NCBI GenBank assembly: GCA_014729505.1
Contig: WJJS01000015.1
Location: 35,300-99,299, forward strand
Reading direction: 5' to 3'
Source: Candidatus Woesearchaeota archaeon
GTDB lineage: Archaea; Nanobdellota; Nanobdellia; Woesearchaeales; ARS49
DNA length: 64,000 nt
Part shown: in pieces, positions 4,324 through 58,084 of the stretch
How positions within the stretch are numbered: the stretch's first letter is position 1
Layout: every line of letters begins with the position of its first letter
Translations under genes and position numbers: made by a program
Notes under the pieces: generated by a model
What the model was told of the DNA's origin: nothing
What the model saw: the letters and a program-made list of their open reading frames with translations, nothing else
Database searches by the model: none

Positions 4324-5394
4324 ATGAGCTATTTCAAAGACTTTCTTGGAGCGGACGAGTCTTTGTTTCGCAACGAAGACGCGCTCGATTTAGAATGGTT
4401 ACCAAAAGTCATACCCTATCGTGAAGAACAACAACAACATATCGCGACATGTATTAAACCCCTCCTTGCAAAACGCAACGGAAAAAACCTGTTTATCTAC
4501 GGAGATCCAGGAATAGGAAAAACAGCGGCAACACGCTCACTGCTTCGTGATCTTGAAGAAACGACAGACGAAGTGGAAGGAGTCTACATCAATTGCTGGC
4601 AAAAAAACACCAGTTACAAAGTCTGCGTAGAAATCTGTCATCTGCTCGGATACAAATTTACACAAAACAAGAACACCGAAGAAATCTTTGCAATCATCAA
4701 AAACATCGTCAACAAAAAAGCAGCAGTGTTCGTATTTGACGAAACAGACAAAATAGAAGACTTTGACTTTCTCTACAGTATACTCAACGATATCTATCGT
4801 AAAACAGTCATCGTCATCACCAACTACAAAGAATGGCTTGGCAGTCTTGAACCGCGCATACGCAGCCGTCTCATGCCAGACATGCTCGAATTCAAAAAAT
4901 ACAGCGTCAACGAAATAGAAGGCATACTCAAACAACGAATAGACTACGCCTTTGTGCCAGGAGTATGGACTGGGCCGCTTATACGGCGCATCGCAGAAAA
5001 AACAGCGACGGTAGGAGATATCCGTGCAGGCATATACCTCCTGCGACAAACAGGCATGCTCGCAGACAATGAGGGATCAAAAAAGATTACCAACGAACAT
5101 GTAGAAGCCACGCTTGCAAAACTCGACGAACAAGGCATACAAAAACCAATGGATCTCGATGAAGAATCGCGCAACATCTTAACAGTCATCAAAGAACTCA
5201 GTCCGCGAAAAATAGGAGACTTATTTAGCGCGTACAAAGAAAAAGGTGGCGGAGCAACATACAAAACCTTCCAAAGAAAGATTGCCAAACTCGAAAAAGC
5301 AAAACTTATTTCTACGAACAAGATCATTGGTGGCAAAGAAGGAACAACAACAGTGATCACGTATGGTCGAGCAAAAACGTTAAGCGATTTCTAA
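4324..5394 (+). CDS. cdc6: Orc1/Cdc6 replication initiator
   Basis: AAA+ Walker A GDPGIGKT, Walker B VFVFDETD, C-terminal winged-helix region; archaeal Orc1/Cdc6 length and layout. Confidence 0.9.
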   Translation: MSYFKDFLGADESLFRNEDALDLEWLPKVIPYREEQQQHIATCIKPLLAKRNGKNLFIYGDPGIGKTAATRSLLRDLEETTDEVEGVYINCWQKNTSYKVCVEICHLLGYKFTQNKNTEEIFAIIKNIVNKKAAVFVFDETDKIEDFDFLYSILNDIYRKTVIVITNYKEWLGSLEPRIRSRLMPDMLEFKKYSVNEIEGILKQRIDYAFVPGVWTGPLIRRIAEKTATVGDIRAGIYLLRQTGMLADNEGSKKITNEHVEATLAKLDEQGIQKPMDLDEESRNILTVIKELSPRKIGDLFSAYKEKGGGATYKTFQRKIAKLEKAKLISTNKIIGGKEGTTTVITYGRAKTLSDF

Positions 5395-11034: not shown

Positions 11035-11241
11035 GTCGGAGTCTGGATTTTCTCCAGGACAGCGTCAAGCAGAGCTTGACTGGCCCCGGTTCAAATCATT
11101 ATAACAGAAAAATTTGAGCGCTTATGCGCCCACAACGCCGTCGCCCGGATTTGAAACCAGGACAGCGTCAAGCAGAGCTTGACTGGTCCCGGTCCAAATC
11201 ATTATAACAGAAAAAGTGGTGACGCTCTCGCGTCATAGAAA
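11035..11241. repeat. two tandem ~105-bp units, each carrying a degenerate copy of the tRNA-Ser 3' end plus a conserved 56-bp core and a variable hairpin+T5
   Basis: 11138-11163 cgccgtcgcccggatttgaaaccagg matches the tRNA-Ser 3' end (11242-11266) for 20 nt then diverges; 11035-11058 is a more degraded copy; 56-bp cores 11059-11115 and 11160-11215 are near-identical (3 mismatches). Confidence 0.7.
11211..11235 (-). terminator. hairpin plus T5 tract immediately 3' of tRNA-Ser
   Basis: Minus-strand TGACGC-GAGA-GCGTCA hairpin followed by CCACTTTTT; a similar hairpin+T5 (GGGCGC ATAA GCGCTC + TTTTT) follows the second repeat unit. Confidence 0.4.
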
Positions 11242-11325
11242 CGCCGTCGCCCGGATTTGAACCGGGATATCCGTAAGGAAACCAGCTTAGCAGGCTGGCG
11301 CAGTACCAGGTTGTGCCACGACGGC
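11242..11325 (-). tRNA. tRNA-Ser (anticodon GCU), class II with long variable arm
   Basis: Manual fold: acceptor GCCGTCG/CGACGGC, D stem GCA/TGC, anticodon stem CCAGC/GCTGG with loop CTGCTAA, variable stem-loop TCC-TTAC-GGA, T arm CCCGG-TTCAAAT-CCGGG, discriminator G; no encoded CCA. Confidence 0.75.
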
Positions 11326-16227: not shown

Positions 16228-17103
16228 ATGAGTAAGACAGGAAGTTTATTCGGATACCTAGTGCATACGATTCGTGCAGAAGTCATCAAGGTCAACGAGC
16301 ATCTACGAGAAGTGCACGCCGCATTTGCGCTTACTGACGATCAAGTTGCAAATTTGCGATTTTATCAAGGAGGAGCGGAACGAGCGCCCACGGGAACTGT
16401 TCCCGTAGAAGATACTGTGGTTCCCGACGAGTATCGGACGGGACGGCTCGTAGGACGTGTCTATCATCGAACGATCAATCCGCCCCTTTTTGCACAAAAC
16501 CAGCCTGGCGATGTGCGACAGAGAAAACTCGAATGGGTCGCAGAACACCTGGGGGCCATGCTTATGCACTACGCACGCGATGATACGGTTTTTCTTGATG
16601 GACTCATTGATGAGTATTCGACAGCACGGGATCCACAACTCTATGTTGAAGGATTTGGATCATACAGTATCGAAGATGAGACGCGCATACGGGAATACCT
16701 TCAGCAAGAAGGAATGCGAGAAGAATCAATACCTGCGCCGGGTGGCTTTGACATTATCCGAGACATACAGCAAGAAGAAAAAAAGGGGCCTGCAGGTGGC
16801 GAAGAATTAGCCAGACGAGAACAAGAACGGGCCATAGAAGAACGACTGGCCGACCTGCGAGGGCCAGAGTTTTCTAATCCTGTTGATATTTCCAGCAGCA
16901 TCGACATGGGAGACTACGCCGCCCACGAAGCAGGTTATGGTCTGCTTGGAAGTATAGCAAAGCGACGAGAACAAGACGCGTTTCTCATCGCTCTAGCACT
17001 CATGACGCAAAATGATATGGGGCCTAGTTATCGTACGATGGATAGTATCCTGCGAAGTTCCAAGACGGACGCTCTGGCAGCATTGGAAGTCATATTCTCA
17101 TAA
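16228..17103 (+). CDS. hypothetical protein
   Basis: 291 aa, Arg/Glu-rich; no recognisable domain. Confidence 0.4.
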   Translation: MSKTGSLFGYLVHTIRAEVIKVNEHLREVHAAFALTDDQVANLRFYQGGAERAPTGTVPVEDTVVPDEYRTGRLVGRVYHRTINPPLFAQNQPGDVRQRKLEWVAEHLGAMLMHYARDDTVFLDGLIDEYSTARDPQLYVEGFGSYSIEDETRIREYLQQEGMREESIPAPGGFDIIRDIQQEEKKGPAGGEELARREQERAIEERLADLRGPEFSNPVDISSSIDMGDYAAHEAGYGLLGSIAKRREQDAFLIALALMTQNDMGPSYRTMDSILRSSKTDALAALEVIFS

Positions 17104-18317: not shown

Positions 18318-20900
18318 ATGCAGAGCGAGAAAGAAATAAAAAAGATCTTCTACGAGAAGACTGATAAACATCCAGAACAATTCTATCCAGTACACACACT
18401 ACAAAAAAGAGGATTCACACGACACAAATGCACCTCCTGCGCACGCAATTACTGGCGCATACCAGAAGATGTTGAACAACGAGGACACAAAAAAAATACC
18501 TGCGGAGACATACAATGCCATGGAAGCTACTCTTTTGTTGGCAAGAGTCCCGCAACACGACAATTGAATTATGTTGAAGCTCTACAAGAGTATTTACGCA
18601 TCCACGAAAAACTAGGCTATACGCCAGTACAACGCTACCCGGTCGTTGCACGATGGAACCCGACCGTTGACTTTACCATTGCAGGCATAGCCTGCTTTCA
18701 ACCATATGTAGTAAGCGGAGAAGTAGATCCTCCGGCAAACCCCCTGGCCATGCCACAATTCTGCCTGCGCTTTAATGACATTGATAATGTAGGCATCACC
18801 GCAGCACATTACGTTGGATTTATCATGCTCGGTGAACAAACATTCGTACCGCCAAAAGAATATGATGTGAACAAATACATGGACGATCACCTCACCTGGC
18901 TAAACGAAGGACTGGGGCTGGATGACAAGTACCTCACGATCCACGAAGATTTCTGGGCAGGGGGAGGAAACTTTGGACCGAGCATGGAATTCTTCAGCGG
19001 CGGACTGGAACTATCAAACCAAGTCTACATGCAATACGAAATCACACCAGAAGGTTACCAAGAACTCGACATAAAAGTCCTCGACATGGGACAGGGACAT
19101 GAACGCATCCCCTGGTTTACACAAGGACTGCCCACAAGCTATGAAAGCACATTCCCGCCAGTAATGAAGAAACTGCGAGAACTCACAAAGATTCCCTTTG
19201 ACAACGACTTTATGACGAGATTTGCGCCGCTTGCAGGACAACTCAACACCGGAGAAGTCGATAATCTCGACGAAGCATGGAAGCGCATAGCACAAGAACT
19301 ACAGCTGACAGTTACTGACGTCAAAGCAAAAGTGTTACCAAACGCAGCACTGTACTCTGTAGCAGAGCACGCGCGAGCATTACTCTTTGCCCTTGCCGAC
19401 GGCGCATTACCCTCAAACACAGGAGGATATTACAATCTGCGCGTTATTCTCCGACGAGCATTAGGATTTATAGAACAGTATAGCTGGCAGTTCGACCTCT
19501 GCGACGTCTGCACATGGCACGCCGAGTACCTCAAACCACTCTTTCCAGATCTGCTAGAACAACTACCAAACGTGCAAAAAATCATCGAAGTAGAAAAACT
19601 CAAATATTACAGTACGCGAGAAAAAACAAAAGAACTCATCGCACAGCTCGTCACAAAACAAGTAACAACCGATGAACTAATAGAACTATACGACAGCAAA
19701 GGAATAAGTCCAGAAGAACTATCACGAGTAGCAAAGGAACAAGGAATAGAGATAACTGTTCCGGACAATTTCTATTCGCTTGTAGCAGCACGCCACGAAC
19801 AACACACCGCCATGCAAACAGTAAGAGAGGAAGAAATTCCTGTTGGAGATGTCCCAGCAACACAGGCACTCTATTTTGATGATTGGAAGAAAACAGAATT
19901 TGTCGCTCGGGTACTGGCAATTGTTGATCATTATGTGGTTCTTGATCAAACCGCATTTTATCCTGTCTCAGGGGGACAAGCAGCTGATAAAGGAATGCTC
20001 ATAGCGAATACAAAAAAAGGCGCCATTACTGCAAAAGTCAAAGACGTTATCAAACAGGGAAACCTTATCATTCACAAAATAGACACGGCGCTTCCGGTTG
20101 GAGGAGAAGTCAAAGGAACCATTGATTTTGAAAGACGAAAACAGTTAACACAACATCACACGACAACACACATCATTAACGCAGCAGCAAGACGAGTACT
20201 TGGAGATCACATCAATCAGGCAAGCGCGAGAAAAGATGTCGATCGAGCACACATAGATCTAACTCATTATCAAGGCGTCACTGAAGAAGAACTGCAACAG
20301 ATAGAAAACGAAGCAAACAAAATAGTTGCAGCAACAATCCCTATTCACAAAAGTTTTGTACCAAGAACGGAAGCAGAACAACGCTACGGTGTTCGCATCT
20401 ATCAAGGAGGCGTTGCTCCTGGAAAACTATTGCGCATAGTAAACATTGAAGGAGTGGATGTTGAAGCCTGTGGAGGAACACATCTCGATAATACCAAAGA
20501 GGCAGAACAGATAAAAATCATCAGCACAACAAAAGTCAAGGACGGCGTTATACGGCTCACGTTTTGTGCAGGAAAAGCAGCGAAACAAAAAGAAACACAG
20601 GAACACTCGCTCTTAATTGACATAGCAGCACTTCTTGAGGTAACGCCTGCACAAGTACCCGGCCGTGCAGAAGAACTGTTTACCAAATGGAAAAAAGCAC
20701 GAAAAGCAGTGAACAAAGACAAAAACATAGATCTCGCACAACTAGAACTGCAGTCAACACGAGAGGATACGGGAGACCTTCTTACACAAACCGCAGATCT
20801 TCTTAACACTCAACCAGAGCATGTACTCAACGTACTGCAACGATTTCTGCGAGAATTAGACGACTATAAACGAACACTATCATTACGAGACAAAGAGTGA
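18318..20900 (+). CDS. alaS: alanyl-tRNA synthetase (archaeal type)
   Basis: Archaeal AlaRS N-terminal catalytic domain; editing domain HxxxH (HTTTHIINAAA) and CGGTH motif; 860 aa. Confidence 0.9.
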   Translation: MQSEKEIKKIFYEKTDKHPEQFYPVHTLQKRGFTRHKCTSCARNYWRIPEDVEQRGHKKNTCGDIQCHGSYSFVGKSPATRQLNYVEALQEYLRIHEKLGYTPVQRYPVVARWNPTVDFTIAGIACFQPYVVSGEVDPPANPLAMPQFCLRFNDIDNVGITAAHYVGFIMLGEQTFVPPKEYDVNKYMDDHLTWLNEGLGLDDKYLTIHEDFWAGGGNFGPSMEFFSGGLELSNQVYMQYEITPEGYQELDIKVLDMGQGHERIPWFTQGLPTSYESTFPPVMKKLRELTKIPFDNDFMTRFAPLAGQLNTGEVDNLDEAWKRIAQELQLTVTDVKAKVLPNAALYSVAEHARALLFALADGALPSNTGGYYNLRVILRRALGFIEQYSWQFDLCDVCTWHAEYLKPLFPDLLEQLPNVQKIIEVEKLKYYSTREKTKELIAQLVTKQVTTDELIELYDSKGISPEELSRVAKEQGIEITVPDNFYSLVAARHEQHTAMQTVREEEIPVGDVPATQALYFDDWKKTEFVARVLAIVDHYVVLDQTAFYPVSGGQAADKGMLIANTKKGAITAKVKDVIKQGNLIIHKIDTALPVGGEVKGTIDFERRKQLTQHHTTTHIINAAARRVLGDHINQASARKDVDRAHIDLTHYQGVTEEELQQIENEANKIVAATIPIHKSFVPRTEAEQRYGVRIYQGGVAPGKLLRIVNIEGVDVEACGGTHLDNTKEAEQIKIISTTKVKDGVIRLTFCAGKAAKQKETQEHSLLIDIAALLEVTPAQVPGRAEELFTKWKKARKAVNKDKNIDLAQLELQSTREDTGDLLTQTADLLNTQPEHVLNVLQRFLRELDDYKRTLSLRDKE

Positions 20901-40444: not shown

Positions 40445-40556
40445 CGCCCCCGGCAGGATTTGAACCTGCGACCTGACGGTCTCTTTCAAAGCTTGCTTAG
40501 AGCAACAAGCGAAGCAAGATAACAGCCGTCCGCTCTAACCACTGAGCCACAGGGGC
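40445..40556 (-). tRNA. tRNA-Asn (GUU) with a 39-nt intron at the 37/38 position
   Basis: Manual fold: acceptor GCCCCTG/CGGGGGC, D arm GCTCAGTGGTTAGAGC, anticodon stem GACGG/CCGTC, loop CTGTTA|intron|A, T arm GCAGG-TTCAAAT-CCTGC; intron lies at plus 40481-40519. Confidence 0.8.
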
Positions 40557-41371: not shown

Positions 41372-41474
41372 TAAATATCACAAGGAATTATCGAGTTAAA
41401 AGAACATTTTTTATACGATAATTTGAAGTCGAAGGCAAACTTTTTCTAAAAGTTTGATCAAAAGAAGTGAGTAT

Positions 41475-41491
41475 GGGGACTTGTAGTCCCC
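41475..41491 (-). terminator. hairpin immediately 3' of tRNA-Ile
   Basis: GGGGACT-TGT-AGTCCCC perfect 7-bp stem. Confidence 0.35.
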
Positions 41492-41500
41492 AACGCTCTA

Positions 41501-44600: not shown

Positions 44601-44766
44601 CACAGCACAAGACAATACTCAAGGCAGAAACGTTTATATACAGGTTTTTTGGTCAGTAATACACGCTGGAGTACAATCTTGACGTGACGGCAACTCTTTA
44701 TGTTATCCGAACAGATGGTCTTCGGTTCTCAAGGCGCGGTTGCTCACGACCGTGCTTATCACACAC

Positions 44767-44858
44767 GCCCGAGTAGTATAGTCTGGATAGTACGCACGGT
44801 TGCGGAAGAATACTTTTGCAAAATCCGTGTAACCGGGGTTCGAATCCTCGCTCGGGCA
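44767..44858 (+). tRNA. tRNA-Arg (GCG) with an 18-nt intron at 37/38
   Basis: Acceptor GCCCGAG/CTCGGGC, anticodon stem CACGG/CCGTG, loop TTGCGG|intron 44806-44823|T, T arm CGGGG-TTCGAAT-CCTCG, discriminator A. Confidence 0.7.
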
Positions 44859-45100
44859 TGTTTTACTTGTTAGATTTTCTTTGTTTTTCTATGGCTCGTC
44901 TTCGAACCCGGGTTCGTCACCTCGAAATCTGGGATTTCGCGGACCTCGAACACCTGTGGTGTTCAAGGAATCCTCGCTCGGGCATACTTACATTGCCTTT
45001 TGGGCTTTGTTTTGTTTTTCTATGGCTCGTCTTCGAACCCGGGTTCGTCACCTCGAAATCTGCGATTTCGCGAACCTGTTAGGCTGGAGAAAACACCAAT
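44859..45100. repeat. two tandem ~130-bp units downstream of tRNA-Arg, each with a ~70-bp conserved core (palindrome CGAACCCGGGTTCG plus a 7-bp-stem hairpin) and a partial copy of the tRNA-Arg 3' end
   Basis: Cores 44880-44945 and 45006-45075 differ at 2 positions; 44967-44983 gaatcctcgctcgggca duplicates the tRNA 3' end (44842-44858); hairpins CGAAATC-TGG-GATTTCG (44921-44938) and CGAAATC-TGC-GATTTCG (45051-45068). Confidence 0.7.
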
Positions 45101-52986: not shown

Positions 52987-54057
52987 ATGCACATGGCCGC
53001 ACTAGACTGCTTACAGAAATCCATTGAACACGTCGAACTCCTCCTACACTGGTTTGCCACATCACATTTTAGCGGCCAATTACGAGATCTTCTCGAAGAT
53101 TATCAGCGCGATGCGCAAGCAATAGAAGAAAGCGGTGCTTCAGAAGACGAACAATTTGATGATCTAGTAGCACTTGAAGAAAGTGTGCAAATCCATTCCA
53201 AAGAATTTGATTATTCATCAGGACTCCATCGATTACAAGTAGTAGCCGGACAAGTCCTCACCTGTATACAAGATATTTTGACCTCGCTAACAGGTTCTAC
53301 TGTTGCACATCCTACTATTCCAGGACTTCACGAACCACGAACAACAGTTGAAGACAGAATAACACTTGTTAAAAAAGAATGTAGCGAAGAATTTCAAAAA
53401 GCAGAGAACGCCGCGCGCACGATCGCGTCATACACTCCTTCGATCATTACTGCACTAGACAATCAACGATTCAAAGAAGCACAAGATCTCACCCTTGCGT
53501 GCCGCCAGATAGTACAAGACATCATCACCTCTCTTACCCGCGTGCTAGCACTATTACGCTCCCTTCTCAGCGGAGTAACGTACAAATACTACAAACATAG
53601 CTATTACTGGACGTATGATAGTGCGTATGCGACAGAATTGCAAGAAGGCCATGTGCTTAGGGGAGTACTCAATGTTGTACACGCCGTCCAAACAAAAATA
53701 GCAGAAATGCTTGATGAGGGAAAACCGCTACCTGATAACGCGTTTCAACTCTCCATGCGAACAGGAACAATAGAACAAACAAGTGGCGGACTTATGATGG
53801 GAAGACAGGATGCAGGCAAACATACACGAATACTGTTTTACTGTTACAGAAAACCACACACATCCGTAATCGACATTCGATTCTGTGAATACATCGGACA
53901 CGATACTCATAACGAAGGAGTAGCAAAAAATAAAGGACGTTATGCAGATCTCATCAATGGCCTGCTCGCCAGAAACACATATGGAGCGATTCATCACGAA
54001 GACAAGGATTTTAACGAGACCTGGATATATTGTGCAACGGTGGCAGATATCCTCTGA
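52987..54057 (+). CDS. hypothetical protein
   Basis: 356 aa, helical, no recognisable domain. Confidence 0.35.
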   Translation: MHMAALDCLQKSIEHVELLLHWFATSHFSGQLRDLLEDYQRDAQAIEESGASEDEQFDDLVALEESVQIHSKEFDYSSGLHRLQVVAGQVLTCIQDILTSLTGSTVAHPTIPGLHEPRTTVEDRITLVKKECSEEFQKAENAARTIASYTPSIITALDNQRFKEAQDLTLACRQIVQDIITSLTRVLALLRSLLSGVTYKYYKHSYYWTYDSAYATELQEGHVLRGVLNVVHAVQTKIAEMLDEGKPLPDNAFQLSMRTGTIEQTSGGLMMGRQDAGKHTRILFYCYRKPHTSVIDIRFCEYIGHDTHNEGVAKNKGRYADLINGLLARNTYGAIHHEDKDFNETWIYCATVADIL

Positions 54058-54547
54058 AAAAATACTTCGTACGCTCACAAATATCTGCAACATTCCAAGA
54101 AGTCACATCAAGTGCACAAGGCTCCAACAACCATGAAGAACTTTCATAAGGATCCTGACTGTTATCCTCTAGCGAATACAGCATCAAACGATCCTTCTTT
54201 CGCGCAATAGTAAGAGCTGCCTGAGGTCCCTGAACACTAATGGAATCCTCAACATAACGGTTCTCAGTCATGTGCACAAGATCTAGAAAAAGACGCTCTG
54301 GGACTCTGCCCTCGCGAAGCATAGTAACTACGTCGTCACATAAAAACTCATGTCTTGCATACGCGTTAGGAACGCCATGAACAGTACTGGAGTACGTCAG
54401 AGAAGGAGCGCAATCATGTATTTTATTCAATGATAAGGAAAAAGGATCCGCAGAGCCGTGAGTATCTGTACGAGATTCGCCGCACGACGCCCTCAAACGC
54501 GCATACACTGCGCTCACCACCTCATCTTGAAAAAAGATGTCCCCCAT
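54011..54547 (-). CDS. hypothetical protein
   Basis: 178 aa; its 3' end overlaps the previous gene by 47 bp. Confidence 0.3.
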   Translation of the reverse strand: MGDIFFQDEVVSAVYARLRASCGESRTDTHGSADPFSLSLNKIHDCAPSLTYSSTVHGVPNAYARHEFLCDDVVTMLREGRVPERLFLDLVHMTENRYVEDSISVQGPQAALTIARKKDRLMLYSLEDNSQDPYESSSWLLEPCALDVTSWNVADICERTKYFFRGYLPPLHNISRSR

Positions 54548-54611
54548 ACCGTTTTTGTGCTCTCATCCCTTTTAAGACTTACGGACACCTGCGACAATGA
54601 CAAGAAGAATA

Positions 54612-54619
54612 TTTATAAA
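54612..54619 (+). promoter_or_regulatory. TATA box upstream of the tRNA-Gln leader / pseudo-tRNA
   Basis: TTTATAAA about 29 bp upstream of 54645; no comparable TATA directly upstream of the intact tRNA-Gln. Confidence 0.45.
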
Positions 54620-54644
54620 GGACGCAAGGGTTTTTTCGCACAAC

Positions 54645-54739
54645 AGTCCCGTAGTGTAGTGGTCCTGCGCAAATCTGCGATTTGCTGGTCTCGCCTCGCA
54701 AGCTCGGCAAGAAATCATCAGGCACTTCATTACAACAAC
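54645..54739 (+). pseudogene. truncated duplicate of the tRNA-Gln 5' part with a 47-nt insertion carrying a GCAAATC-TGC-GATTTGC hairpin (likely leader of the tRNA-Gln transcript)
   Basis: 54645-54664 is identical to tRNA-Gln positions 1-20 (plus 4 upstream nt); after the insert, AATCATCAGGCACTT matches tRNA-Gln 21-35 with 1 mismatch; no T arm or 3' acceptor. Confidence 0.6.
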
Positions 54740-54812
54740 AGTCCCGTAGTGTAGTGGTCAATCATCTGGCACTTTGGATGCTAGGACGGCGGTTCGAATC
54801 CGCCCGGGACTA
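54740..54812 (+). tRNA. tRNA-Gln (UUG)
   Basis: Acceptor AGTCCCG/CGGGACT, anticodon stem TGGCA/TGCTA, loop CTTTGGA, T arm GGCGG-TTCGAAT-CCGCC, discriminator A. Confidence 0.75.
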
Positions 54813-54827
54813 TCTCGAGGTGACATC

Positions 54828-55535
54828 ATGACTGACATATATTCTCTAAAAGTTCAGGCACAACACTGCGACGCAACGATTCTACTCAACGGATTTCCAG
54901 TTGTTCGAGGAAACGTAGGTGCAGGAGGATACCCGATAAACCCTTATCTGGCCGGAGACAACACGCTAGAAGTCACACTACAAGCAAGAGGGCAAGGAGC
55001 ACATTTTTCTGGAGGAATCAACATCGCACAAAAAGGAGGTGTCGTGAGTACAGACCGTCAACAAAGCGATTTGATGAACTTTTCATTCTCCAAAGAACTT
55101 GAAAAGGGACCATTGACAAAGACGTTTACTTTCACTAGCACAGGAGCAAACTTTAGCAACCGACTCGTTAGCGCCCCGATACTTGAAGACAAGAACGCGT
55201 TACTTGATTATGCAATGAACGTCCAAAAAGCAATACTCGACAAAGACAAAGAAGCACTGCAAAGACACATGAAAACAAAAATGCTAGACTATGCAAAAGC
55301 GTTTGGAGTGCCTGACGAACACATGCTACAAGAACTCGACAACTTTATTCACATGATGTTTCAAGAAAAGCCAATCCTCTTTACAAGAGAACAAGTGAAG
55401 GCGACGCCGTGGTGTGACAAACGCATCTGGGAACTCAAAGTCACACCTGACAACGCACTTTTGCGCACAAAAGAAGGATGGACCATGCCTGTCTTTGTAG
55501 GTCTTGTTGACGGAAAGATTACCATCGTACGTTAG
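54828..55535 (+). CDS. hypothetical protein
   Basis: 235 aa from the MTDIYS start; the ORF-track start at 54774 would overlap the tRNA. Confidence 0.4.
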   Translation: MTDIYSLKVQAQHCDATILLNGFPVVRGNVGAGGYPINPYLAGDNTLEVTLQARGQGAHFSGGINIAQKGGVVSTDRQQSDLMNFSFSKELEKGPLTKTFTFTSTGANFSNRLVSAPILEDKNALLDYAMNVQKAILDKDKEALQRHMKTKMLDYAKAFGVPDEHMLQELDNFIHMMFQEKPILFTREQVKATPWCDKRIWELKVTPDNALLRTKEGWTMPVFVGLVDGKITIVR

Positions 55536-55602
55536 GAAAATTCAGGCAGTATGTTGATCAATAAAAGAGTTTGCGCACCAAAGATGTTACACACTTCGCG
55601 CA

Positions 55603-56262
55603 TTACACTTTTTTTTGCAGTGCAAGAATAGCTTCCATCGTTTTGACCATATCCTCCTGTTGCACATAAATCAAAAATTCGGGAGGAACAATAATCATAT
55701 CTTCAATATTAATCTGCTGAATCGCAATTTCGCTTGCAATCTTTGCAAGAATGCCCTTTTGCTTGACTATCCGTTCATCAAAGACCACATTAATCTCTGC
55801 GAGATGTTCATTTCTTTTTTCAATATGTTTAGCAGGAATTACCTTCAACACTTCTTTCAGGTGGCTGTCTTCAACAATGATTTTAATCCAGCGCGACGCT
55901 TTACTTACGCGCACAAAATCCTTATCAGCACTCATATCAAGGACGCGAGCAACATATTTCTCCGCGCGACGATTAAGAGTTAGTGAAGTAACATTATTCT
56001 TGGACAGAATCTTTGCCTGATCAAACATACGATGAAATTTTTGTTCCATCGTAGAGGGTTTGCGTTCCTTGACATACCGGCGAATCGCAGAAATAATCGA
56101 ATCAATACTTCCCCTGACCTTCTTTTTTGTCATCAAGTAACGCGCAAGAGCGCGAATATTGATAATGTCTCGTGCAAGATCAGTCTTTATCGTCGCGTCT
56201 GCATCAATATGATTCCACACCGTTTTAGTAATGCTATTATTGCCCATGACTTGCGTACACAA
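55603..56262 (-). CDS. hypothetical protein (possible C-terminal ACT-like fold)
   Basis: 219 aa; no confident assignment. Confidence 0.35.
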   Translation of the reverse strand: MCTQVMGNNSITKTVWNHIDADATIKTDLARDIINIRALARYLMTKKKVRGSIDSIISAIRRYVKERKPSTMEQKFHRMFDQAKILSKNNVTSLTLNRRAEKYVARVLDMSADKDFVRVSKASRWIKIIVEDSHLKEVLKVIPAKHIEKRNEHLAEINVVFDERIVKQKGILAKIASEIAIQQINIEDMIIVPPEFLIYVQQEDMVKTMEAILALQKKV

Positions 56263-56450
56263 CGGTCAAAATGACATATTTGTGTAATGTTTCTCTCTAA
56301 ATGAATAATATGTGCCACAAACTTTATAAGTGTATGGGTTATCCTAGGCGATAATGGCGAATATGCTGAATACCAAGATTTACGTCTTTTGGTAGTCAGC
56401 GTGCTCTTTCTCCCGCCGCACGCAAATAAGGGGGAGAGAGCAGTAGGTGA

Positions 56451-56990
56451 GTGACAATGGAATATGACGCGGTTGAAATGGAAAACATGATGAAAGAAGG
56501 AATGCGCGAAGTCTACGTGGGTCGCGACGGCACCATGAGCAAAATTGCAGATACTTCCTATACACCACTGAACCGATCCTACTGGGGTCCTCGAAGAGAT
56601 ACCACACTACTCTGTTCAGTAGCAAAAGATACTAATGAACACCACATCACGCTACGATTCTTTGGCGCAGGACGCAATCCTGACAGAACCAAGGAACTCA
56701 CACAACTTGTGCGAACAGAAATGGGAAGCATACTGCCATGCCGCTCGAGAGGATTAGTCACTGCGTATGACGATAACGGTGGTTATGTATGCAATGATGA
56801 AAGAGGAAGGCCCGATGCGGTACAAGTCCGTGCAATAGTACACAACAATAACTCAAACACGCTTGAACTCTCCGTTAAAGGAGTGTATGGAGCACAGGAA
56901 CTAGAAGGTCCAGTACGAAGAATCATGCAAGGCATGCTCGCCATGCGAGAAGGACCAGAAAAAGAACTACCCCGAGGAGGATACTTCTAA
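56451..56990 (+). CDS. hypothetical protein
   Basis: 179 aa; TAATG overlap with the next ORF. Confidence 0.35.
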   Translation: MTMEYDAVEMENMMKEGMREVYVGRDGTMSKIADTSYTPLNRSYWGPRRDTTLLCSVAKDTNEHHITLRFFGAGRNPDRTKELTQLVRTEMGSILPCRSRGLVTAYDDNGGYVCNDERGRPDAVQVRAIVHNNNSNTLELSVKGVYGAQELEGPVRRIMQGMLAMREGPEKELPRGGYF

Positions 56991-58084
56991 TGCACACAAC
57001 ACCACTATCTGTCAAATCAGAATACGGAAGTGCAGAATGGTTGCGAGAAGAGACAGAAAAAGTACGATCGCGACTGGGATTACCACCACAAGATACACAT
57101 GCACTGCTAGAAGACGAACAGCTCAAAGAAGTCCTGCTACGCCAGCACCAACATCGAAGTCGCGTAGAACAAGAAGAACGACAACTCATGCATTATCGTG
57201 CAGAAGATGTCAATCACTGCGCTCGACAAGTCTGGGGCCGACGAGAACTACAACGTCTGGGGGTAATTAACGGAGCAGCAGACAGACTCTTAGCCAACCA
57301 AGAACTCCTGCACGCACTCACGCATCAAGATGCACACAAGCGCTACGCACCAACAGCCAGAGAGCGAGGAGGATTTGTGTTTGGACTTGGATACGTCAGA
57401 CGATTCATCGATGACGAACTACGATCCTACAGAGCAGAACAACAAACGCCCCAAGTAGCAAACGGCATCTGTGACCTCGATCACCTGTTATGCGTGTCAG
57501 GAATGATGCTTGCAGGAATGAACCCTGATGCGGTCCTCGAAGGTCAACGCTGCGGTTCACCAGCAATGGACCGTCGGCGTTTTGGCCTTGAACGTTCAGC
57601 AGACGGTTATCATTTACAATCCACAGCAACAAAACGACAGTATCATCTACGACGAGAAAAAAAGAAAATGGTGTTTACCCATCAATCAGTGCATCCCGTC
57701 GTGTATGAAAAAACAGTCAGTGAATTTCGCGATGGTCCACGATTACGACCATTAACGCTCGTACCATCAGGAGCCAGTCAGCACCAAGTGGCAACATTCA
57801 TGCACAAAGCAGGACAGCATCTGACAAGAGAGCCGCGAGAATCAGTAGACAATGTGCGTGTCAACGGATCAACAATGGAATATGACCAGCATTTCTGGAT
57901 CGACAGAGATGAACTACACGATCTGGACTCCTCGGGCTGTGCAACACAAGCAGAAGTATTTGACGATCCGGAAAACAGATTCTACACGGCACACGTGACG
58001 CTGCGAGCAAAAGAATGCATGGAAAACCATACGCCAACACTGACATACCTGCTCACCGTGACCGTCGGAAAACGAACACTATAA
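56990..58084 (+). CDS. hypothetical protein (Arg/His/Gln-rich)
   Basis: 364 aa, no recognisable domain; composition atypical for the window. Confidence 0.4.
   Translation: MHTTPLSVKSEYGSAEWLREETEKVRSRLGLPPQDTHALLEDEQLKEVLLRQHQHRSRVEQEERQLMHYRAEDVNHCARQVWGRRELQRLGVINGAADRLLANQELLHALTHQDAHKRYAPTARERGGFVFGLGYVRRFIDDELRSYRAEQQTPQVANGICDLDHLLCVSGMMLAGMNPDAVLEGQRCGSPAMDRRRFGLERSADGYHLQSTATKRQYHLRREKKKMVFTHQSVHPVVYEKTVSEFRDGPRLRPLTLVPSGASQHQVATFMHKAGQHLTREPRESVDNVRVNGSTMEYDQHFWIDRDELHDLDSSGCATQAEVFDDPENRFYTAHVTLRAKECMENHTPTLTYLLTVTVGKRTL

Follow-up and report, generated by a model that had tools for sequence, protein, structure and literature searches.

A truncated 5' copy of tRNA-Gln lies between the live gene and its probable promoter in a Woesearchaeota genome

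The Islander catalog (PMC4383910) lists displaced tRNA fragments left by attachment-site (att) duplication, and such fragments are also known from Thermococcaceae (PMC9897764). In Caldiarchaeum subterraneum, a recombinase-encoding element separates the live tRNA-Thr gene from a 5' fragment of it 1.8 kb upstream, and the fragment was linked to intron gain and mobile-element recombination (PMC3293823). SSV-type elements carry the attachment site within their integrase gene; integration splits that gene, and the element is trapped and decays. Integrases of this type act at the 3' ends of tRNA genes and only in rare cases at 5' ends (PMC7253208). Casposons are integrated at the 3' end of tRNA-Pro by a Cas1-family integrase (PMC5137440). 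Here, we describe a tRNA-Gln(TTG) gene in a 64-kb stretch of a Candidatus Woesearchaeota (DPANN) genome (contig WJJS01000015.1; the whole stretch is called the window below) that is preceded by a partial copy of its own 5' end, which we call the stump. Our overall explanation, to which we assign a probability of roughly 55%, is that the stump was displaced together with the original promoter, that the live gene is now reached by read-through, and that the arrangement is the scar of an integration event.

The block upstream of tRNA-Gln reads as a 5' fragment of 40 nucleotides (nt), from -5 to +34 of the gene, with an interruption in the D-loop. Its first piece, ACAAC followed by tRNA nucleotides 1–20, is an exact 25-nt repeat (54640–54664 = 54735–54759) with zero matches in shuffles of the window; the first-pass annotation of this DNA had recognized the duplication but measured it at 20 or 24 nt. 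The second piece (54713–54727) agrees with tRNA nucleotides 21–35 at 14 of 15 positions, a score reached by 0 of 2000 shuffles, which bears out the 15-nt match with one mismatch reported earlier. The mismatch, T to A, falls in the anticodon stem, and homology to tRNA-Gln ends after nucleotide 34 (34/35), inside the anticodon loop. Seven unrelated nucleotides (54728–54734) then lead to the second repeat copy and 12 (54728–54739) to the tRNA itself, the latter as already noted in the first pass. The insert between the two pieces, previously given as 47 nt, is 48 nt long (54665–54712). It contains the perfect hairpin GCAAATC-TGC-GATTTGC that had been pointed out (54669–54685), a TGGTC direct repeat on either side of the hairpin block, and a tandem CTCGCAAG/CTCGGCAAG; no terminal inverted repeats were seen at its ends on inspection. 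Because homology to the tRNA resumes past the insert and stops only at nucleotide 34/35, we interpret the stump as an interrupted 40-nt 5' fragment and not as an element inserted between duplicated target copies. The window was also searched for a displaced 3' fragment of tRNA-Gln, and none was found.

This design resembles att fragments in its exact repeat of one tRNA end (25/25 nt), with one copy dead and the other part of an intact, working tRNA (58.3 bits), and in an inner boundary that falls in the anticodon loop or T-loop (after nucleotide 34 for Gln; nucleotides 57 and 54 for the tRNA-Arg and tRNA-Ser loci described below). It differs in that the copies lie 68–131 nt apart and not kilobases, with no integrase or cargo between them, and in that a 5' piece has kept a promoter, the repeats extend into host flanks, and the Gln stump has an additional D-loop interruption, which is not classical for att fragments. 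The Caldiarchaeum fragment likewise lies upstream of the live tRNA gene in the same orientation; there the interval is 1.8 kb with a recombinase, whereas here it is 70 nt without any gene, and the live gene appears to depend on the promoter of the fragment.

Several observations place that promoter in front of the stump. The distance from the first T of the TATA box to stump nucleotide 1 (54645) is 33 nt, compared with 33 at tRNA-Ser, 32 at tRNA-Asn and tRNA-Ile, and 36 at tRNA-Met, and the Ser, Asn, and Ile genes have a purine-rich transcription factor B recognition element (BRE) and a TTTATAWA-type box (CTTTAAAA at Ser, CTTTATAA at Ile). In agreement with the first-pass annotation, TTTATAAA at 54612 is the sole TATA-like box: There is no other TTTATAWA within 54560–54830 on the plus strand, and the 50 nt before the live tRNA-Gln (54740), where a separate promoter was looked for, contain none. 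The only run of four or more Ts within 54600–54830 is at 54631, upstream of the predicted start; none lies between the stump and tRNA-Gln, nor between tRNA-Gln and the open reading frame (ORF) at 54828, which is preceded by a Shine-Dalgarno-like GAGGTGA (54817–54823). Given a tRNA that seems to have no promoter of its own and no T-run after the stump, a precursor with a leader of ∼95 nt, as proposed in the first pass, is the simplest reading; its support is in silico, from the 33-nt promoter spacing and a stretch free of promoters and terminators up to the tRNA. Tandem tRNA genes 4–40 nt apart are common on related contigs, and internal tRNAs without their own promoter are therefore likely to be cut out routinely in this group. 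The locus is similar to such polycistronic or long-leader precursors in that the tRNA would be excised from a longer transcript, and it differs from them in that the upstream "cistron" is a dead 5' copy of the same tRNA, able to compete for the 3' strand of the acceptor stem. The ORF downstream is probably on the same transcript. We also noted that an open frame starting inside tRNA-Gln at 54774 is in frame with this first downstream ORF.

The proposed course of expression would then be as follows. The segment 54640–54734 would be a displaced, nonfunctional 5' fragment that has kept the original BRE and TATA box, and the second copy of the 5' segment, joined to the old 3' part, would form the live gene 95 nt downstream. 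RNA polymerase would start at about 54642–54645 and read the stump, which has no terminator, then tRNA-Gln, and probably the ORF; cleavage by RNase P at 54739/54740 would free the tRNA from its leader. That the stump is dead, and that the live tRNA is read through from the old promoter and released by RNase P, we regard as highly probable.

The window contains two further tRNA genes with partial copies, both at the 3' end (Table 1). At tRNA-Arg, the 18-nt repeat spans from G57 in the T-loop to the end of the tRNA plus 1 nt. Each of the two 67-nt units that follow holds a hairpin CGAAATC-TGG/TGC-GATTTCG (44923–44939 and 45054–45070), and an additional hairpin GAACACC-TGT-GGTGTTC is at 44948–44964. 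At tRNA-Ser, a 22-nt exact copy (11240–11261 = 11134–11155), from T54 in the T-loop to the end plus 2 nt, lies 84 nt downstream. It is accompanied by two 59-nt units of 97% identity (11157–11215 and 11054–11112), each with a hairpin GTCAAGC-TCT-GCTTGAC that differs from the Gln/Arg type. Five of the seven short-range direct-repeat families in the 64 kb sit at these three tRNA loci (Gln, Arg, and Ser), which argues for a process specific to tRNA genes. Judged by sequence, the three loci belong to one class of scar, which also takes in other tRNA loci of Woesearchaeota and Nanoarchaeota. In its members, 16–32 nt of a tRNA end are copied exactly, the inner breakpoint falls in one of the cloverleaf loops, and the spacer is 36–110 nt long, with hairpins and without element genes.

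Some features of the Arg and Ser loci stand apart from this comparison. The nearest consensus BRE/TATA of tRNA-Arg is at 44633–44640, 134 nt upstream, which would give this gene, too, a leader of ∼100 nt. The first nucleotides of that leader are GCTGGAGTA, 32 nt past the consensus TATA box, and the tRNA starts with GCCCGAGTA. That the Arg leader (44665–44766) is a decayed copy of the 5' part of tRNA-Arg is no more than a suggestion: the alignment is not significant, its score being reached by 507 of 2000 shuffles. A hairpin within this leader (44734–44757) resembles an anticodon arm. The Ser 59-nt units contain an inverted copy of the T-arm, and a GC-rich hairpin and a T-run come after both the intact tRNA-Ser and its partial copy, the two hairpins being different.

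Table 1. Coordinates of features at the tRNA-Gln, tRNA-Arg, and tRNA-Ser loci (window positions)
Feature	Position	Strand	Basis or detail
BRE/TATA promoter (TTTATAAA at 54612–54619)	54604–54619	+	Spacing match to tRNA-Ser, Asn, and Ile; purine-rich BRE
Stump piece 1: ACAAC + tRNA-Gln nt 1–20, direct repeat copy 1	54640–54664	+	25/25 identical to 54735–54759
48-nt insert at D-loop position of stump	54665–54712	+	Direct reading, hairpin scan
Stump piece 2: tRNA nt 21–35, one mismatch	54713–54727	+	Alignment and shuffles
7-nt junction CATTACA, stump to second repeat copy	54728–54734	+	Direct reading
Direct repeat copy 2: 5 upstream nt + first 20 nt of live tRNA-Gln	54735–54759	+	
Intact tRNA-Gln(TTG)	54740–54812	+	ARAGORN; Rfam tRNA, 58.3 bits
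ORF of unknown function, start 15 nt past tRNA-Gln	54828–55535	+	No Pfam/PHROG match
tRNA-Arg(GCG), 18-nt canonical intron	44767–44858	+	Rfam, 49.2 bits; missed by ARAGORN
Arg 3' scar: 18-nt exact repeat, 44842–44859 = 44968–44985, 108-nt spacer between	44842–44985	+	
Arg two 67-nt units, 44880–44946 and 45011–45077	44880–45077	+	97% identity
tRNA-Ser(GCT)	11242–11325	-	Locus with 3' scar, 11054–11325

The Gln and Arg loci had been joined in the first pass through a shared hairpin type, and the link holds beyond chance. AAATCTGSGATTT occurs exactly at three sites in the 64 kb (44925, 45056, and 54671); with a one-mismatch site at 16350 there are four, against 0.28 expected, and no shuffle reached four. 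The hairpin does recur at Arg, and outside tRNA loci the window has only the site at 16350. The two copies at Arg belong to a single tandemly duplicated unit and count once, leaving only two independent occurrences, both at tRNA scars. The Gln insert and the Arg unit have a 13-nt core AAATCTGCGATTT in common (identical to 45056–45068), and short direct repeats flank the hairpin blocks at both loci (TGGTC at Gln, ACCTCGAA at Arg). It is unlikely that the AAATC-TGS-GATTT core came to both scars by chance; the scars may share a binding site there or go back to one origin. The deeper connection between the loci appears to be the partial duplication of a tRNA end, which is also present at Ser with a different hairpin. 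More generally, perfect hairpins with a 7-bp stem and a 3-nt loop number 13 in the window against 3.7 expected (∼3.5-fold), eight of them beside tRNAs; hairpins with 4- and 5-nt loops are at expectation. That hairpin arms are copied from the cognate tRNA as a general rule did not hold up, being true for the Arg hairpins and one hairpin at a related locus (L076) but not for Gln. As for the one-mismatch site, a near copy of the Gln hairpin (GCAAATTTGCGATTT, 14/15) lies at 16348–16362 inside an ORF (16228–17103) and is probably due to chance (E = 1.6); ∼28 nt past it is another 7-bp/3-nt hairpin, ACGGGAA-CTG-TTCCCGT (16390–16406).

For comparison, we scanned species-representative genomes, among which the source genome is not included, with an 18-mer from the 5' end of tRNA-Gln and obtained at least 119 loci; the comparative sample analyzed is small and was chosen through this one tRNA-Gln sequence. 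At least six tRNA loci, including four of tRNA-Gln, on other Woesearchaeota or Nanoarchaeota contigs share the scar design. When exact partial copies (≥15 nt) were counted throughout each locus, six of 29 DPANN tRNAs had one, as against none of 134 tRNAs from other archaea (Fisher p = 2e-5), and a separate blastn survey that included the window found partial copies at nine of 34 tRNAs, about a quarter. A perfect 5' stump 68–100 nt upstream of the live gene is present at four independent tRNA-Gln loci: the window, L088 (a 32-nt repeat, -18 to +14, 68 nt upstream), the Woesearchaeota locus L107 (an exact 16-nt copy 100 nt upstream of tRNA-Gln(CTG)), and L120 (a 21-nt repeat 81 nt upstream of tRNA-Gln(TTG), found in a metagenome scan for two tandem 5' ends). 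Events on the 3' side comprise a 30-nt copy 64 nt after tRNA-Asp on the L120 contig, a 21-nt copy 62 nt downstream of the tRNA at L085, and, at L076, a nearly perfect tandem duplication of 96 bp (period 96) beginning in the T-loop. Repeat lengths at eight analogous short-range loci are 16–32 nt. Inner breakpoints fall in the D-loop (14/15, 14/15, 15/16, and 20/21), in the T-loop (53/54 to about 59/60), and in the anticodon loop after nucleotide 34, where the window and L107 stumps both appear to end (the L107 alignment was made by eye).

The inserts at L088, L107, and L120 are homologous, with CCAGAC, a hairpin, and CACCAAA..TGGTG in common and paired changes that keep the stems, and they occur in unrelated gene contexts (including ribosomal protein genes and Hef) and at two different isoacceptors. 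Two L120 inserts at different tRNAs share ACCAAAA...TTGGTA. To judge by AAATC-TGS-GATTT in the source genome and ACCAAA..TTTGGT at L088, L107, and L120, scar palindromes look genome-specific. A 27-mer for close relatives of the window tRNA-Gln had zero matches in the metagenomes; the Gln 20-mer, the Arg unit, and the Ser unit had zero matches in viral contigs, where the 18-mer hit two viral tRNA clusters with complete tRNA-Gln genes, which are irrelevant here. As a separate observation, the tRNA-Gln(CTG) of L085 (501–605; Rfam, 49.8 bits) has a D-loop insert of ∼33 nt, apparently a noncanonical intron, and is missed or misnamed by ARAGORN.

One related locus retains the body of an element. At L088 (640–2975, minus strand), the live tRNA-Gln(CTG) is followed by a remnant of ∼2.2 kb that ends in a 45-nt copy of the tRNA from nucleotide 31 to the end plus 2 nt. 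Reading out of the tRNA is a truncated ORF with an integrase match (phrog_5127, E = 2.6e-9; weak match to PF16795 "archaeal phage integrase"), and the remnant also encodes a ribbon-helix-helix protein and a ClpP/NfeD-like ORF. By its sequence, this is the SSV-type arrangement of a decayed integrated element, and only here did we find an integrase-bearing body between the repeats. The ∼45-nt fragment with its anticodon-loop boundary mirrors the window stump (40 nt, -5 to +34, the same boundary). The window differs from SSV-type cases in having no detected integrase remnant, and 5'-end sites are rare for such integrases. The L088 contig is labeled Methanosarcinales and may be mis-binned; its tRNA-Gln is identical to that of Woesearchaeota L107 at 71 of 73 positions by our count.

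From this comparison, we tentatively attribute the stump, at slightly less than even odds, to site-specific integration in the anticodon loop followed by loss of the element. An integrative element whose attachment site carried the 5' half of the tRNA would have recombined in the anticodon loop; almost all of it would then have been lost, the stump would have decayed further, and the insert would have interrupted it later. We favor this origin because of the restriction to tRNA genes, the breakpoints in loops, the exact repeats that rebuild a working gene, the homologous inserts in unrelated contexts, and the full-size case at L088. A number of points weigh against it. Only 70 nt and no integrase lie between the two 25-nt copies, the body of an att element is absent from the window, and no integrase, transposase, or Cas1 was found among its ∼60 ORFs by Pfam/PHROG-type searches. 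What would remain of the element is just 7 nt in the window and up to ∼45 nt at L107, and all nine short-range cases have spacers of at most 110 nt without genes, which random deletion of kilobase-sized elements does not predict. The repeats run into host flanks (18 nt upstream at L088, 15 nt downstream at the L120 tRNA-Asp), and reaching such host-specific sequence is unusual for the identity block of an attachment site. The D-loop is no classical integrase sublocation, L076 is a plain 96-bp tandem duplication, and the Arg and Ser loci, too, have the look of local duplication, the spacer and the DNA past the displaced fragment being 97% identical at each. No free element with the scar sequences was found in the viral contigs and metagenomes scanned. 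For the processing step, no RNase P RNA was found in the 64-kb window, and the presence of RNase P in the source genome is assumed from the literature: All archaeal genomes examined carry one or more genes for RNase P proteins, and DPANN archaea lack HARP, the protein-only enzyme (PMC6380272).

Several of these points would be accommodated by break repair or replication slippage without any mobile element, an explanation we consider less likely. Here, tRNA loops would break or stall the fork, and synthesis-dependent end joining would duplicate the stretch from the break in the D-, anticodon, or T-loop to a point just outside the gene, adding filler that folds into hairpins. The L076 tandem duplication from the T-loop, the 97% identity between each of the Arg and Ser spacers and what follows the partial copy, repeats that extend into host flanks, and spacings that are all 68–131 nt without element genes are as this account would have them. 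So are the excess of 7-bp/3-nt hairpins (13 vs. 3.7, 8/13 beside tRNAs), the resemblance of the Arg hairpin arms to the Arg T-arm, and the small direct duplications TGGTC and CTCG(G)CAAG in the Gln insert. Yet the fillers at L088, L107, and L120 are homologous despite differing gene contexts and isoacceptors, the arms of the Gln hairpin do not come from the cognate tRNA, and the strict limit to tRNA genes and their loops requires an extra assumption. In addition, simple duplication predicts something other than what is seen after each Arg and Ser repeat, where a stretch of 22–27 nt is only about half identical (by eye) and the rest is 97% identical. We find the model of the first-pass annotation, in which a small hairpin element entered the D-loop of tRNA-Gln with a target duplication of ∼24 bp and the Arg units belong to the same family, decidedly improbable. 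The 13-nt core AAATCTGCGATTT shared by the Gln insert and the Arg unit, the direct repeats around the hairpin blocks (TGGTC; ACCTCGAA), and the ACCAAAA...TTGGTA common to L120 inserts at different tRNAs are in its favor. However, tRNA nucleotides 21–35 resume after the insert, so the 25-nt repeat does not flank it; the repeats are anywhere from 16 to 32 nt long, depending on the locus; and there are no terminal inverted repeats. Nor does the locus look like a miniature inverted-repeat transposable element, which would have many dispersed copies directly flanked by a constant duplication: across its 64 kb the window has two independent copies of the motif, each at a tRNA scar, and the Ser hairpin is unrelated. 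We know of no transposase that makes such long and variable target duplications. Casposon integration is comparable in that the T-loop region guides it, the adjacent segment is duplicated, and tandem arrays split by the duplicated segment are possible; but casposase produces a fixed 15-bp duplication and needs cas1 and terminal inverted repeats (PMC5137440), whereas our repeats are 16–32 nt, the ends are not inverted on inspection, no Cas1 is encoded in the window, and events on the 5' side would be unexplained. The other possibility raised in the first pass, a local duplication followed by an insertion, is compatible with the evidence. Tandem duplication of the whole gene with decay in place was rejected: Beyond nucleotide 20, there is no in-register similarity, and the anticodon-stem piece copies the TTG gene and not a CTG paralog. 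The 95-nt spacing at Gln would itself fit a tRNA plus a short spacer, as at L103.

Two further readings give the leader a function. One is that it is a selected RNA in which the stump strand acts as a cis decoy for the 3' strand of the acceptor stem, controlling maturation of tRNA-Gln and expression of the ORF. In the predicted ensemble of the 168-nt precursor, the stump AGUCCCG pairs with the 3' acceptor strand in place of the true 5' strand (mean pair probability 0.92 vs. 0.002; -56.8 vs. -52.5 kcal/mol), although thermodynamic folding ignores cotranscriptional folding and base modification. The first 14–20 nt are perfect in all four tRNA-Gln stumps while neighboring sequence has diverged, and the L088 and L120 hairpins keep their pairing through paired changes. 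Recent events would also give perfect identity, however, and most tRNA-Gln loci of relatives (among the loci listed) have no stump. The Gln leader and the Arg region match no known RNA family (Rfam, permissive E-value threshold), and the fold of the Gln leader is unremarkable (z = -1.9). We think a selected decoy very unlikely; the predicted pairing may either burden the locus as a by-product of the scar or serve regulation. The other is a split-type gene, with the stump as exon 1 and a giant D-loop intron that runs to the same position in the downstream copy and is removed by the splicing endonuclease. The promoter does place the start at or just before stump nucleotide 1, and D-loop introns apparently exist in the group (tRNA-Gln of L085). 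Against this, no bulge-helix-bulge motif was found in 54645–54739, in the fold or by eye, including at 54664/54665 or a matching 3' site; on inspection, the two splice contexts are identical sequences that are unable to pair; and a complete, uninterrupted tRNA-Gln stands at 54740–54812. We give this reading almost no credence.

The window is otherwise ordinary chromosome, with housekeeping genes that include Orc1/Cdc6, SerRS, aIF5B, GINS, FtsZ, DNA ligase, and PGK, as well as an alanyl-tRNA synthetase (18318–20900) that is 100% identical to an NCBI protein of a Candidatus Woesearchaeota archaeon and at most 59% identical to its next relatives. The Orc1/Cdc6 gene is at 4324–5394, yet cumulative GC skew drops steadily over the whole window without a turning point. 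Five ORFs around tRNA-Gln (within 54828–58084 and 52987–54547) have no Pfam or PHROG match; for a sixth, at 52987–54057, there is only a sub-threshold Pfam match. Six tRNA genes are present: Ser, Met, Ile, and Gln, detected by ARAGORN, and the intron-containing Asn and Arg, detected by Rfam only. The tRNA-Asn(GTT) (40445–40556, minus strand) has an intron of ∼38 nt; default ARAGORN misses it. Downstream of tRNA-Ile (41437–41492, minus strand) are two perfect hairpins, GGGGACT-ACA-AGTCCCC and AAACTTTT-AGA-AAAAGTTT, without a partial tRNA copy; the second resembles the L088 and L120 leader hairpins (AACTTTT...AAAAGTT) and may be a type of bidirectional terminator.

tRNA fragments are usually taken as the borders of kilobase-sized elements; the fragments described here lie ∼100 nt from the live gene and enclose no genes. 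As a conjecture with rather low odds, an active process specific to Woesearchaeales may be writing miniature scars into tRNA genes, with 5' stumps then serving as cis decoys that gate maturation of the tRNA and the ORF; behind it might be mini integrative elements without genes that an integrase mobilizes in trans, or else a nuclease that cuts tRNA genes in their cloverleaf loops. In DPANN genomes, stumps and long leaders will lead the annotation of tRNAs and promoters astray. Maturation of the live tRNA-Gln apparently requires that a leader mimicking its own 5' strand be taken off, and the locus offers a natural setting for studying how specific RNase P is and how pre-tRNAs fold. In these small genomes, tRNA genes appear to be the main hot spots of recombination, and their scars can part an essential gene from its promoter.

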